Below are positions 102-10,272 of a DNA stretch of 14,121 nucleotides, piece after piece. How positions within the stretch are numbered: position 1 is the stretch's first letter; each line of letters opens with the position of its first letter. Position numbers and translations under genes: made by a program. The notes beneath the pieces are model-generated. The model did no database searches. It was not told the origin of the DNA and saw nothing but the letters and a program-made list of their open reading frames with translations. Source of the stretch: a virus; the IMG/VR virus record IMGVR_UViG_3300042731_008053; one strand, written 5' to 3'.

Positions 102-545
102 TTAGCTCCTCTTGATGATTTCAATGAAGTGATGGTTGCCGAGTGCTGCGGGGCCACGCGCGCGACGTACGAGCGCGATCGCTTGTTCGGCCGGCATTTT
201 GTAAACATGACGTAAGGCCAGTGCACTGATGACACCAGAGCGATTGAGACCAGCGTTGCAAGTCACGAGGACAGTCTTTCCAGCTCGTAAAGCTCGCGCC
301 ACAAGACGCGCTGTCCTGTCAATCATCTCGCGCTCCGCCAACGTGACACCCCATAGATTGTCCAAGATGGGCGCATGGACGACGGTCGTGCCAGGGAAAT
401 TGTGACCACGGGGCTGGTACTCTTCGGCCATGAGTACCAAGACATCAACGGGGTAGGCCCTACCTGGCGTTGGCTTGGGACCCTGGTAAAGGTTCGGAGC
501 AACACGATCCAGTGGAGTGTCGTGGTACGCGTGGCGCGTGTTCAT
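102..545 (-). CDS. Dual-specificity / tyrosine protein phosphatase (CX5R). SD-supported ATG at 545; the track's GTG at 578 is the alternative start.
   Basis: Active-site signature VLVTCNAGLNRSG (HCX5R[ST] P-loop) lies in a 158-aa ORF of typical DSP size. ATG 545..543 is preceded by GGAGA at a 5-nt spacing and overlaps the upstream stop (TGA 544..542) as ATGA. Confidence 0.75.
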   Translation of the reverse strand: MNTRHAYHDTPLDRVAPNLYQGPKPTPGRAYPVDVLVLMAEEYQPRGHNFPGTTVVHAPILDNLWGVTLAEREMIDRTARLVARALRAGKTVLVTCNAGLNRSGVISALALRHVYKMPAEQAIALVRRARGPAALGNHHFIEIIKRS

Positions 546-1261
546 CGGCGTCTCCAAGCCGGACTCACGGCTGCCCACATCAGTGTTGCGGCCTCAGCAT
601 CGTGCGGCACGAGCGCATGAGACGGCTCTTCGTGCGAAACAAATGGCCACTTTTGATTCTTGCGTGCCCAAATCAACGCTCCGCCGACTGCTGCAGCAGC
701 AACAAGACCAAAAACGATCGTCCAAACGTTGTAGCCCTTTTTGCCTGTTGCCTTGTCGATAGCGCCCTTGATGCGGGGATGTTCCGGCAAGTTCGAGAAG
801 GCCCGCTGAAGCTTGACGAGAAACTCGACGGTACCCGCCGCGCCGCGCGCGATGGTAGGAGCCGTCTTGAAGGGCTCGACGTACGTGGTACCGACCGAGT
901 ACTGCATGTCGGTGGGATCGCCCAACGCGAAGTTAGACGCGAACAGGCCCATTGCGTCGCTGAGAGTCTTCCACGCTGCTTGCCATGACTCATACTCGCC
1001 CAACGACCACTCGACGTAGTTGGCAGAATCACCAGTTGCTGGATTTTCGATACGTCTGACAGCTGGTTTGGTAACGCCGTCAATCGGCACGACAGGATAC
1101 GCCGCCCACCCGGTGTCAGCGGCTTGATTGAGGCGCTCCAACATCTGAACGAGCGTTTCCCGCGCGTTCGTCACCGTGAGCATCCTGTCTTGAGGCAACG
1201 TGCCTTCCAACGTCGCTGCTGCCTCCATCGCTTCAGCGTTGATGATGCTGTATGTGAACAT
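542..1261 (-). CDS. Hypothetical membrane protein with one TM helix near the C-terminus, followed by a ~40-aa basic tail. Translationally coupled to the phosphatase.
   Basis: ORF 542..1264 has TTG at 1264 and ATG at 1261. Hydrophobic segment VWTIVFGLVAAAAVGGALIWA then RKNQKW. The upstream gene's stop overlaps the start as TGATG. Confidence 0.6.
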   Translation of the reverse strand: MFTYSIINAEAMEAAATLEGTLPQDRMLTVTNARETLVQMLERLNQAADTGWAAYPVVPIDGVTKPAVRRIENPATGDSANYVEWSLGEYESWQAAWKTLSDAMGLFASNFALGDPTDMQYSVGTTYVEPFKTAPTIARGAAGTVEFLVKLQRAFSNLPEHPRIKGAIDKATGKKGYNVWTIVFGLVAAAAVGGALIWARKNQKWPFVSHEEPSHALVPHDAEAATLMWAAVSPAWRRR

Positions 1262-2220
1262 CAACCACCGTGCTTTTGTCGCATCGATCGAACGATGTTG
1301 ATAGCTGCGACAGTGACAATCGCAGCCGTGGACAAAGCCGACAAGTAGAACATGCGACGCTGGTGTCGAGACAATTCAAAGACAGCATCGGCCGCAGCGT
1401 CCGCCACAGCCCCCAATGGAGCTGTCGGCGGTCCATACGGGGGTGTAACGGGGCGCCAATTATTGGGCGGCACGTAGGGAGGGGCGACATAACCTTCTTT
1501 GGTCCAAATCCATGCCGACTGCACAGGCGTATAACACTCGTTGGGACCCAGCTCTGCATCGGTCGGAATCGCGCCCAACATCGTGTCGTAATAAAAGCCC
1601 TGTTCGCCGCGCTCGTTGTACCGTGGGTCGAAGGGCCGTAAAAACGGTGCGCCTCCCGGAAGTGTACGGTTGATCTCCCAGCCGCCACCCTGGGTCAGTA
1701 CGAACCCGAGTCCTGCAGGACCGTTCATGTTCGCAAACGATCCATAGGGGTCGTAGTAGCGTGGCAGTGCTGGTGCGGCCATCGGTTTCGATGGACCGAA
1801 CGGTACTGAAGTAGTGGGACTGGTAGTGACGTGTGTCGGGCCGGTCGGAAGCGTAACGGGCGGCGGCGGTTTCACCTCCCAGCCCGTAGACGAGGTGGGT
1901 GTCCGCGTTGTGGTAGGTGTGGTAGTCACGGTTGCGGTGGGGGTGATCGACGTTGGCCCTACAGGCGGCGTAGGTGTGGTTGGTGGGACTGGACCAATCG
2001 GGCCCCACGGTGATGCGGGTCCGACTCTCCACTGAACGGGTGGGAACAACCGCGCGTCGATGGGGAACTTTTGCTGATCCGGTACGAGATGGATCGGCAT
2101 TGGCTCAGGTGGACACTGTTGAACCCCGAGCTGGACTCCACCAGCCATACCCCCACGACGCTGGACAAGGACACTGGTTCCAGGGGCGGTACCGACGCGG
2201 CGCGTGAACTTGAGCATCAC
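1261..2220 (-). CDS. Pro/Thr/Tyr-rich C-terminally anchored (tail-anchored) membrane protein.
   Basis: 319-aa ORF. Long PT-rich linker (PPTTPTPPVGPTSITPTATVTTTPTTTRTPTSST) and a Y/P-rich region. C-terminal TM FYLSALSTAAIVTVAAINIV followed by RSMRQKHGG. GTG start at 2220, ATG at 2217. Confidence 0.6.
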   Translation of the reverse strand: MMLKFTRRVGTAPGTSVLVQRRGGMAGGVQLGVQQCPPEPMPIHLVPDQQKFPIDARLFPPVQWRVGPASPWGPIGPVPPTTPTPPVGPTSITPTATVTTTPTTTRTPTSSTGWEVKPPPPVTLPTGPTHVTTSPTTSVPFGPSKPMAAPALPRYYDPYGSFANMNGPAGLGFVLTQGGGWEINRTLPGGAPFLRPFDPRYNERGEQGFYYDTMLGAIPTDAELGPNECYTPVQSAWIWTKEGYVAPPYVPPNNWRPVTPPYGPPTAPLGAVADAAADAVFELSRHQRRMFYLSALSTAAIVTVAAINIVRSMRQKHGG

Positions 2221-2253
2221 CGCTACGTTACCATTGATCGCAGCAGCGATCTA

Positions 2254-2577
2254 TCAGCGTCGGCGGCGCGTCCGGCGGTACTGTTTCTTGGGGACGAAGG
2301 TCCACGCCAAAATCAGGCCAGCCGTCCCGAGCAGCCCAGCTATTACCAGACTGTACGTTTTGCGCTGGCGGTTCCACTCATCCTGGGTAGGAGCCGCACC
2401 AAGTTGGTGCTGCGCGTCCCACACAGGCGTCGGCGGCAAGCGTTCGCAGTGCGGTCCAAACGGTGCGTAGTCGTCTGGCCCAGGACCGCAATGATAATAA
2501 CCACGACCGTACGGACCGTATCCACGGCCGTCTCGGATGCCCGTGCCGCCGGGACATGGCTGCGGACCGTGTCTCAT
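2254..2577 (-). CDS. Small Gly/Tyr/Pro-rich tail-anchored membrane protein.
   Basis: 107 aa. GRGYGPYGRGYY N-region. C-terminal TM YSLVIAGLLGTAGLILAWTFV then KKQYRRTRRRR. ATGA overlap with the upstream gene at 2574-2577. Confidence 0.55.
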   Translation of the reverse strand: MRHGPQPCPGGTGIRDGRGYGPYGRGYYHCGPGPDDYAPFGPHCERLPPTPVWDAQHQLGAAPTQDEWNRQRKTYSLVIAGLLGTAGLILAWTFVPKKQYRRTRRRR

Positions 2578-9843: not shown

Positions 9844-9850
9844 GGCTGTG

Positions 9851-9880
9851 GTATAACAGCACCAAGAAGGTCCGATTCAA
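9851..9880 (-). promoter_or_regulatory. Candidate sigma70-like promoter for the 8554..9843 gene.
   Basis: On the minus strand, TTGAAT (9880..9875) is followed by an 18-nt spacer and TTATAC (9856..9851), within a 60-bp AT-richer divergent intergenic region. The predicted TSS is near the TTG start at 9843. Confidence 0.3.
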
Positions 9881-9903
9881 CACTGTCTTGAGGTCGATCA
9901 ACC

Positions 9904-10272
9904 ATGCTCACAGCAACCATGTCGTCACCCGGTGCACTGAACGATGGCGTTTGGGATTTCCTCACGAAGGTTTTCTCGCCAACACCCACAACAACGCCTT
10001 GCATCACGCCCGGCAACCCACCCGGATGTACGGTAGGCCCAAAGTGCATCACGCCTGGCAATCCGCCCGGCTGCACGACCTACCCCACGACGACAACCAC
10101 AACGACGCCCACGTACGTGCCCGGCGCGCCGTGCATCACGCCTGGGTACCCTCCGGGCTGCATTGTCCAGACCAAGTGGTATCAAGACTGGAAAGTCTGG
10201 GCGCTGATTTTGGGCGCCGTCGCTACTGTCGGTGGAGTGGTGTACTTCACCCGCACTCCTGCGACCGCGTAA
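9904..10272 (+). CDS. Tail-anchored protein with three Cys-bracketed CITPG(N/Y)PPGC repeats and a poly-Thr linker.
   Basis: PCITPGNPPGCT, KCITPGNPPGCT and PCITPGYPPGCI, plus TTTTTTTP. C-terminal TM VWALILGAVATVGGVVYF then TRTPATA. GAGGT SD 9 nt upstream. Confidence 0.65.
   Translation: MLTATMSSPGALNDGVWDFLTKVFSPTPTTTPCITPGNPPGCTVGPKCITPGNPPGCTTYPTTTTTTTPTYVPGAPCITPGYPPGCIVQTKWYQDWKVWALILGAVATVGGVVYFTRTPATA
9997..10164 (+). repeat. Three imperfect ~36-nt direct repeats encoding the CITPGNPPGC units, with a C/A-rich (ACn) poly-Thr-coding linker before repeat 3.
   Basis: tgcatcacgcc(c/t)gg(c/g)(aa/ta)(c/t)cc(a/g/t)cc(c/g)gg(a/c)tg(t/c) at 10000-10029, 10045-10074 and 10132-10161. Confidence 0.6.

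Follow-up and report, generated by a model that had tools for sequence, protein, structure and literature searches.

A dense array of C-terminally anchored membrane proteins beside a candidate jelly-roll capsid gene in an uncultivated virus

We analysed a 14,121-nt stretch of the IMG/VR record IMGVR_UViG_3300042731_008053 (hereafter the window), in which ~23 genes were mapped, ten of them encoding proteins with a hydrophobic helix close to the C-terminus. The best explanation for the window is that it is a piece of an uncultivated temperate bacterial virus, apparently tail-less, with relatives on contigs of ~70-95 kb. The ten anchored genes, a transglutaminase-like (TGase-like) gene, three two-helix paralogues and a putative lipoprotein would together form the membrane part of a virion or morphogenesis module, and we lean, with modest confidence, towards the view that the anchored genes encode the proteins with which a new, large membrane-containing virus equips its virion membrane and enters its host. 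A lipid-containing virus is the best available explanation, although unproven, and it is from the genes alone that we infer lipid in the virion as well as the topology, virion location and function of the anchored proteins.

Results

Ten anchored genes and their density

The ten open reading frames (ORFs) that a sequence-only reading had singled out are open over their whole length (Table 1), and the C-terminal strings that it quoted (VYYYVRKPK, LYVRKRRP, VVYTRRYA, VVYFTRTP, IYSRKKYT and AVRKRQ) are all found in the proteins. Topology was read from hydropathy only. The proposed layout of one C-terminal helix followed by a short basic tail applies to all ten proteins as regards the helix and to nine as regards the tail, which comprises 4-11 residues with a net charge of +1 to +7; the tail of 542-1261 has 40 residues. 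The anchor helices are formed by 15-28 uncharged residues (Ala 20%, Val 16%, Gly 13%, Leu 13%), and their GxxxG-like character holds in the loose sense, since a small-xxx-small spacing occurs 1-5 times in each, while strict GxxxG is present in only two of the ten. Eight genes combine a single C-proximal transmembrane (TM) segment and a short tail with the lack of a signal peptide; the exceptions are 542-1261, on account of its tail, and 8554-9843, the only one of the ten with a signal-peptide-like N-terminus.

The density of such genes is unusual, as had been claimed: they make up 10 of the ~23 window genes, against 3 of 63 outside the corresponding module of a 68-kb relative described below (binomial p = 4e-8). 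Within the relative, genes of this kind make up 9 of 34 inside the module around the capsid-like gene, compared with the 3 of 63 outside it (Fisher p = 0.003). Counting five membrane genes that were not on the original list (3851-5554, the three two-helix paralogues at 6275-7659 and the lipoprotein gene 10317-10568), membrane or lipoprotein genes amount to 15 of 23 in the window.

Several lines of evidence support the coding status of these genes. Our gene map matches independent calls on identical public contigs, namely L097 for 102-7126 and L024 for 10614-14121 (L numbers denote fetched loci); on L097, an identical Logan contig, the five anchored genes at 542-3750 were called. Homologues of seven of the ten were found in relatives, GGAG ribosome-binding sites (RBS) precede 2866-3750, 7656-7763 and 7774-8091, and GC content at third codon positions (GC3) exceeds that at second positions (GC2) in nine of the ten, marginally in 1261-2217 (0.61 vs 0.59) and modestly in 7774-8091 (0.58 vs 0.51). 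Shadow ORFs of these GC-rich loci show a C-terminal hydrophobic segment in ~5% of cases (102/2165), against 43% of the window genes. The weakest coding status is that of 7656-7763, for which no homologue was found, and for 9904-10272 one gene caller chose the opposite strand. With the corrections given here, the observation is real and non-random.

A candidate capsid gene adjoins the anchored module

Downstream of the anchored genes lies a gene for a 236-aa protein (12889-13599) that was modelled as a single jelly roll (SJR), making it a candidate major capsid protein; a first AlphaFold2 model from a shallow alignment was poor (predicted local distance difference test score 50) and was remade from a wider range of sequences. 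The gene has the highest GC3 of the window (0.85 vs 0.55-0.75 for its neighbours), and the strongest terminator-like hairpin of the window (13689-13722, 14-bp stem) lies 3' of it; together with its GGAG RBS, these features would fit an abundant structural protein. The 236-aa protein gave no tblastn match to GenBank phages and plasmids, and Foldseek against BFVD returned nothing significant. A comparison by hhalign of the neighbouring conserved families with the capsid-like family, made for a second SJR capsid protein, was negative. Sequence searches of PDB were negative or at chance level for the capsid-like, 171-aa and ~300-aa families, for the P-loop, 811-aa and 1351-aa proteins, and for a family A head (see below).

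Locus L024, identical to window positions 9116-14121, extends the sequence by 9.5 kb and encodes beta-rich proteins of 171 aa (19 loci), ~108 aa (two copies) and 275-289 aa, as well as a coiled-coil membrane protein. Conserved small beta-rich proteins (171, ~108 and ~290-337 aa) are also found downstream in relatives, and L022 has, in addition, M23 peptidase and peptidoglycan-binding genes downstream.

The element, its relatives and the tailed-phage hallmarks

The 236-aa protein has 473 unannotated homologues at 50-90% identity, on contigs of up to 232 kb, many of them of 74-102 kb (473 clusters at 90% identity in public data), and the capsid-like gene was found in 16 IMG/VR loci and five loci of metagenome-assembled genomes (MAGs). 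The gene order is conserved in at least 20 loci: an anchored array on the minus strand, the divergent TGase-like gene, a two-helix gene, a helix-turn-helix (HTH) gene on the minus strand, the Gly-rich protein and the 236-aa protein. The view that these are not housekeeping genes is in agreement with this virus-like element on IMG/VR contigs and with an integrated copy beside host metabolic genes: in L017 1029-6380, on the Gemmatimonadota MAG chromosome CP070815.1, the viral two-helix gene is directly adjoined by genes for an MR/MLE-type epimerase and an M19 dipeptidase. We read this site as a provirus-host junction, and it is the only clue to the host. Other MAG bins with the capsid-like gene bear the labels Actinomycetes, Polyangiales, Alphaproteobacteria and Woesearchaeota, which probably represent binning noise.

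The relative IMGVR_UViG_3300002461_000841 was walked over positions 1506-69887 (68.4 kb, 89% covered by called genes), with Pfam searches of all ORFs of at least 100 aa and PHROGs searches of the same set except for the leftmost ~10 kb (L101). The families identified comprise a PD-(D/E)XK nuclease, an SNF2 helicase, a TSCPD domain, a ComM-like AAA+ protein, RadC, a tyrosine integrase, methyltransferases, a glycosyltransferase and an HTH_17 protein, and some genes match PHROGs families of unknown function. Its membrane-protein genes cluster at 20.3-38.5 kb around the capsid-like gene, and five consecutive C-anchored minus-strand genes adjoin an intein-bearing TGase gene, as in the window. Neither in this relative nor in the +/-10 kb flanks of the other scanned loci did Pfam or PHROGs reveal a large terminase subunit (TerL), a portal, an HK97-type major capsid protein or tail families.

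Of the neighbours that the sequence-only reading proposed to look for, a jelly-roll capsid-like gene adjoins the anchored module, and neither a packaging ATPase nor conjugation ATPases or a relaxase were found. In particular, Pfam and P-loop scans detected no VirB4-, VirD4- or relaxase-type ATPase in the module. The 68.4-kb relative encodes a 439-aa P-loop protein far from the capsid-like gene; it has no Pfam or PDB match and could be a divergent ATPase. Phage-type genes are present in these loci (Mom-like, HNH, endolysins, excisionase-type HTH and inteins). In the window itself, Pfam and PHROGs matches were limited to the dual-specificity phosphatase, HTH_17, a weak transglutaminase, a weak intein and a weak DUF6962, and whole-window megablast against GenBank phages gave no match. 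Members of this group were absent from GenBank phages, from the matches that the structural-module proteins gave in Pfam, PHROGs or PDB, and from the literature searched.

Two proteins of related loci have a wider distribution. A 658-aa protein with NSNN(I/V)TFG repeats (L013/L026 10001-11977; c13 39105-41081) has relatives in 71 IMG/VR contigs with GC contents of 33-66%, some of which carry terminase-like Walker A motifs, and its gene is promiscuous and probably of receptor-binding type. A downstream walk with this protein brought mostly unrelated phages, and its gene is no marker for the group. A 370-aa protein (L099 15092-16204; c13 64786-65898) shares 44-57% identity with hypothetical proteins from 463 GenBank phages, among them the jumbo Pseudomonas phages Lu11 and HRDY3, and is probably the source of a strong phrog_1735 match.

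At least three anchor families instead of one module

A single anchor common to all ten proteins had been proposed. The ten anchors have a mean pair score of 28.8, compared with 22.3 +/- 0.75 for within-segment shuffles, none of 500 shuffles scoring as high, under a null that wipes out generic TM features (Trp/Phe at the helix entry, Tyr and Arg/Lys at the exit). Because the shuffles remove these features, profiles were run against all ORFs of related loci, and the hidden Markov model (HMM) searches separated no fewer than three mutually unrelated families of anchors, besides two orphans. The VY-x-R-K/R tail, regarded as a special module, is largely the generic aromatic-belt and positive-flank pattern of TM helices. 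Nor are the heads unrelated throughout: 2574-2846 with 8309-8554 and 1261-2217 with 7774-8091 are paralogue pairs over 85-100 residues, and 2866-3750 and 8554-9843 align over ~130 residues.

The idea of a conserved anchor on diverse heads survives only for family A, in which the same C-terminal 40-50 residues are carried by proteins of 119-659 aa. The family A HMM recovers 2866-3750, 8554-9843 and 9904-10272 at E 1e-16 to 1e-17 and 2574-2846 at only E 0.003, and misses the other six. The anchor (~45 residues) reads LP-x-Y-K-K/N-W/P-x-F-W-x-A-I-GGGVAVVG-x-GG-x-x-L-x-RR(K/R)R, the helix consensus GGGVAVVG.GG being conserved; its C-flank has a charge of +3.8, against +1.5 for the N-flank. Members outside the seed include L001 1351-3330 (1.5e-15), L015 854-2164 (1e-11) and L002 630-1808 (2e-9). 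Relatives contain 3-4 family A genes per tandem minus-strand array (L001 210-4127, L002 630-5415, L015 854-5653, L016 1088-4160 and 5690-7492), and L016 has a fifth beyond the TGase gene. Family A proteins also share an N-terminal motif, ML-x-x-Q-x-N-G, which could be a targeting, processing or assembly signal; 15 of 24 begin with ML, compared with 9.9% of all ORFs (p = 5e-10), and their middles are variable. A peptidoglycan-binding head in some family A relatives was considered on the basis of one faint Pfam match and sequence reading, and was not confirmed.

An exhaustive search of 1.84 billion proteins with a three-anchor profile yielded 49 matches, among them further proteins of differing length that end in this anchor, whereas a word-index homologue search with the same profile returned one protein only. 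Virus-type matches, with an ML..Q start and with anchor and RRK at the very end, are P0196 (a clear orthologue of 2866-3750), P0200, P0202, P0203, P0207 and P0211; P0190 is a fragment of 8554-9843 itself. A second, cellular type (P0199, P0205, P0206, P0209, P0213, P0214, P0232 and P0234) has a signal peptide, TPR-like repeats and T-P-x-YKKWWFWT followed by a helix, and may stem from Myxococcota. As these proteins carry the same anchor, the family A anchor type is not exclusive to the virus, which suggests that the viral version imitates an anchor type of the host or was acquired from it. The literature searched contained no description of the KKWWFW motif or of this virus group.

Family B comprises 2574-2846 and 8309-8554, homologous over their full length, with orthologues in six loci, and family C the last ~100 residues of 1261-2217 and 7774-8091, present in 8-9 related loci. 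The order A then B (2866-3750, 2574-2846) is repeated by 8554-9843 and 8309-8554, and a C paralogue lies close by. This second cluster has the layout of the first, so part of the density reflects an old segmental duplication. A tail peptide, SHALVP[YH][DE]AE, is common to 542-1261 and to a two-TM coiled-coil protein encoded downstream in the same virus (L024 12865-13764); in both it follows a Gly/Ala-rich TM and a basic stretch, it occurs nowhere else in ~100 fetched loci, and it may be a shared docking motif.

Other genes of the window

The TGase-like gene 3851-5554 is transcribed divergently from the anchored-gene array and is interrupted by a 324-aa intein (window 4352-5323) exactly at the catalytic Cys motif (FKGGD|C...VVHN|CDDHSVL). 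The intein-less orthologue L008 4706-5443 reads FKAGDCDDTAIL; L013 also has the intein. The idea that the TGase-like protein processes the ML...G N-termini in the manner of a double-glycine-leader or adenain-like protease was considered and is speculative. The two-helix paralogues, of which relatives have a single copy and the window three, share only a C-terminal membrane hairpin (HGYxRN..W..FP..T..VA.AQGFGKPK); there is a weak match to Pfam DUF6962.

Two very basic small proteins (5564-5989 and 5996-6271, with 21% and 26% K+R), with no homologues in the fetched loci, are possible candidates for DNA-binding or DNA-condensing proteins. The phosphatase gene lies directly 3' of the anchored array, and L022 has the same pair, an orthologue of 542-1261 followed by DSPc; a contig reached through a phosphatase look-up added only ~0.6 kb upstream of the window. 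The 763-aa protein that begins at 13815 has a C-terminal Mom-like DNA-modification domain (Pfam 1e-17) and a LAGLIDADG insert; at this place the closest relative, L022, has a 512-aa protein with a weak methylase match and a separate LAGLIDADG gene.

Table 1. Genes mapped in the window, with the evidence for each
Positions	Strand	Product	Evidence or remarks
102-545	minus	Dual-specificity phosphatase	Pfam DSPc 7e-9; ATG start at 545 is the called start
542-1261	minus	239 aa; TM ~177-200, then RKNQK and 35 residues; tail carries SHALVPHDAEAA	L097 call; orthologue L022 177-764
1261-2217	minus	318 aa, PT-rich; family C C-terminal domain and TM; tail RSMRQKHGG	Paralogue of 7774-8091
2254-2577	minus	107 aa, Gly/Tyr-rich; C-terminal TM, +7 tail; orphan	L097 call; no homologue in fetched loci
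2574-2846	minus	90 aa, family B; amphipathic helix, TM and RKRRP	Orthologues L008, L009, L011, L013, L014, L018
2866-3750	minus	294 aa, family A; N-terminal MLQAHYNG, variable middle, PVYKKWWFW, Gly/Ala TM and RRYA
3851-5554	plus	Transglutaminase/papain-like protein; N-terminal TM, residues 25-43	Conserved in 18 loci; weak transglutaminase match
5564-5989	plus	Very basic small protein (30 K+R/141)	Composition
5996-6271	plus	Very basic small protein (24 K+R/91)	Composition
6275-6784, 6788-7126, 7120-7659	plus	Three tandem two-helix paralogues	E 1e-10 to 1e-13 mutually; conserved in 10 loci
7656-7763	plus	35-aa single-TM peptide, tail RKKYT; orphan	GTG start overlaps preceding stop; GGAG 8 nt upstream
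7774-8091	plus	105 aa, family C paralogue	L022 3913-4329, E 2e-12
8105-8308	plus	Gene	Gene map
8309-8554	minus	81 aa, family B paralogue	Sequence comparison
8554-9843	minus	429 aa, family A; signal-peptide-like residues 3-26; end VWYKRP, TM and RKPKTV	Hydropathy, HMM
9904-10272	plus	122 aa, Cys/Pro-repeat family A; KWYQDWKVW, TM and RTPATA	HMM E 9e-17; homologue L022 18206-18562
10317-10568	plus	83-aa putative lipoprotein; lipobox-type signal LLLVAAC (MRAVVVLLLVAAC)	Sequence reading only
End at 10614	minus	HTH_17 gene	Gene map
~11067-11996	plus	Gene	Gene map
12007-12795	plus	262-aa Gly-rich, partly hydrophobic protein	Always directly upstream of capsid-like gene (20 loci)
12889-13599	plus	236-aa predicted single jelly roll, candidate major capsid protein	GGAG RBS
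13815 to window end	plus	Start of Mom-like gene, continuing in L024 4700-6991	763 aa in full

Discussion

In the mechanism that we propose, the anchored proteins would enter the host cytoplasmic membrane through their single Gly/Ala-rich helices, whose small residues would let them pack closely into a virus-specific membrane patch. On account of the flank charges and the positive-inside rule, the basic juxtamembrane tails would lie on the cytoplasmic face, where they could bind acidic lipids, the capsid lattice or DNA; this face would look toward the capsid in a PRD1-type vesicle and inward in an enveloped particle. The jelly-roll protein would then assemble on the patch, so that the finished particle has an internal membrane like that of PRD1 and PM2. 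These two phages collect their membrane proteins in a patch of the cytoplasmic membrane, and in PM2 the capsomers are brought into register by the TM proteins P3 and P6 (PMC6356626). The family A proteins, with conserved ends and diversifying, variable middles, would most likely be host-contact and cell-wall-penetration proteins displayed from the membrane, and the N-anchored papain/transglutaminase-like protein may serve as a wall-degrading or processing enzyme.

A number of observations weigh against this interpretation. An FtsK/HerA-type packaging ATPase was not found, and in 24 loci the +/-10 kb around the capsid-like gene encode no Walker A or P-loop protein. Contigs of ~70-95 kb are far larger than the genome of any known internal-membrane phage, so that the analogy may not hold. 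A signal peptide is missing from most family A proteins, whose sequence leaves it ambiguous on which side of the membrane the heads lie. Moreover, Pfam and PHROGs may overlook very divergent HK97 or terminase proteins, the shared 658-aa gene points to gene exchange with tailed phages, and the virus is known from sequence alone, not from particles.

Taking the interpretation a step further, we tentatively suggest, as something possible but short of an even chance, that the group consists of large (~60-95 kb) temperate bacterial viruses of an undescribed lineage, which would lack a tail, contain lipid and have a single-jelly-roll capsid protein, diversifying anchored spikes and a novel way of packaging. 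The spikes would combine a host-type YKKWWFW anchor with the N-terminal ML-x-x-Q-x-N-G signal, and the packaging machinery would be unrelated to terminases and to the PRD1-type ATPase.

The most serious alternative, which we consider unlikely but by no means negligible, is that the virus is real and the anchored proteins are accessory proteins of the host membrane, acting in superinfection exclusion, lysis control (as holin-, antiholin- or spanin-like proteins) or envelope remodelling, while the particle has no membrane and belongs to a very divergent tailed phage or to another morphotype. Small size, a single membrane pass and a basic C-terminus are features typical of holins and exclusion proteins. 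Family A diversifies fast, as defence and counter-defence genes do; the missing PRD1-type packaging ATPase, the gene exchange with tailed phages and the endolysin-type genes near the module in L022 would also agree with an accessory role. Against it, 10-15 genes per 14 kb, encoding proteins of up to 429 aa (659 aa in relatives), far exceed what any lysis or exclusion cassette contains, the array adjoins, in conserved order in at least 20 contigs, the most conserved and most codon-biased structural-type gene, and no tailed-phage hallmark was detected in 68 kb.

An enveloped or pleomorphic particle of the Plasmaviridae or Pleolipoviridae type, in which the anchored proteins would be spikes and the jelly-roll protein a nucleocapsid, matrix or other component, is in our judgement improbable. 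It would account well for the layout of 8554-9843 (signal peptide, large ectodomain, C-terminal TM and short basic tail), for a charge bias that puts the tails on the cytoplasmic or internal side, and for the signal peptides and N-terminal periplasmic-type domains of the cellular YKKWWFW-anchor proteins. But a signal peptide is found in only one of the ten anchored genes, the likely hosts are diderm, so that budding at the inner membrane would not free particles, and the conserved jelly-roll protein with several beta-rich partners points to an icosahedral shell. With respect to the two families named, only 8554-9843 is spike-like, a jelly-roll gene is present and the relatives measure ~70-95 kb.

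A non-viral origin, as a cellular surface-display or secretion island or a membrane-rich integrative conjugative element, is very improbable. The YKKWWFW-type anchor does occur in cellular TPR-type proteins, and the element integrates and carries an integrase; on the other side stand the module's lack of VirB4-, VirD4- or relaxase-type ATPases and of any P-loop protein, the relatives in IMG/VR, the phage-type genes listed above and the jelly-roll capsid-like protein. Finally, an artefact whereby GC-rich DNA yields Ala/Gly-rich hydrophobic stretches in mis-called ORFs, to which the shadow ORFs lend a background of ~5%, is effectively refuted by the 43% rate in the window, the conserved homologues of seven of the ten genes (only 7656-7763 and 2254-2577 being without any), the concurring independent gene calls and the RBS and GC3 patterns that favour coding.

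If the reading as a lipid-containing virus is true, a widespread group of 70-95 kb would change the picture of tail-less phage diversity, as only a few membrane-containing phages are known, all of them small (10-35 kb) and most of them aquatic or extremophile; the undescribed lineage outlined above would surpass every known internal-membrane phage several times over in size. With its more than ten C-terminally anchored proteins, the virus would offer a natural system for studying how a viral membrane proteome is built and sorted. The design of family A, with its N-terminal motif, variable head, anchor and tandem arrays, provides a profile for metagenome mining and a candidate display scaffold. 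Should the anchored proteins be accessory instead, they would still represent an unusually large and conserved cassette of that kind.

Among known systems, PRD1 (Tectiviridae) and PM2 (Corticoviridae) carry wall-degrading enzymes in their virions and have genomes of 10-15 kb, compared with ~70-95 kb for the relatives described here. They have no sequence similarity to the window and differ from it in their double-jelly-roll capsid and adjoining FtsK/HerA-type ATPase, where the capsid-like protein is a predicted single jelly roll and the ATPase was not found. They are similar in that many small phage membrane proteins are encoded with the capsid genes and, with regard to our proposal, in their assembly on a patch of the host cytoplasmic membrane (PMC6356626). 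SPV1 (Portogloboviridae), P23-77 (Matshushitaviridae) and SH1, HHIV-2 and HCIV-1 (Sphaerolipoviridae) are single-jelly-roll membrane viruses of archaea or Thermus. Their genomes measure 16-31 kb, and they differ in having two adjacent SJR capsid proteins and an ATPase, a second SJR protein not having been shown here.

The coat proteins of filamentous phages (M13 pVIII, Pf3) are likewise single-pass, membrane-inserted structural proteins and have no long cytoplasmic domains. Contact with DNA is made by their basic C-terminal tail, and the R/K tails could act in an analogous way; the coat proteins have no homology to the proteins described here and form a helical sheath of ~50-aa subunits, in contrast to heads of 400-650 aa accompanied by a jelly-roll protein. 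The cellular YKKWWFW proteins share with family A the pre-TM T-P-x-Y-K-K/R-W-W-F-W-T followed by a Gly/Ala-rich helix, and depart from it in the 20-30 residues past the helix, in lacking the RR(K/R) end and ML-x-x-Q, and in having a signal peptide. Bacterial tail-anchored proteins, which are rare in cellular proteomes, resemble eight or nine of the ten proteins in having a TM within ~30 residues of the C-terminus and no signal peptide; unlike them, the anchored proteins described here are encoded by 40% of the genes, and their C-flank charge bias favours the opposite, N-out orientation.

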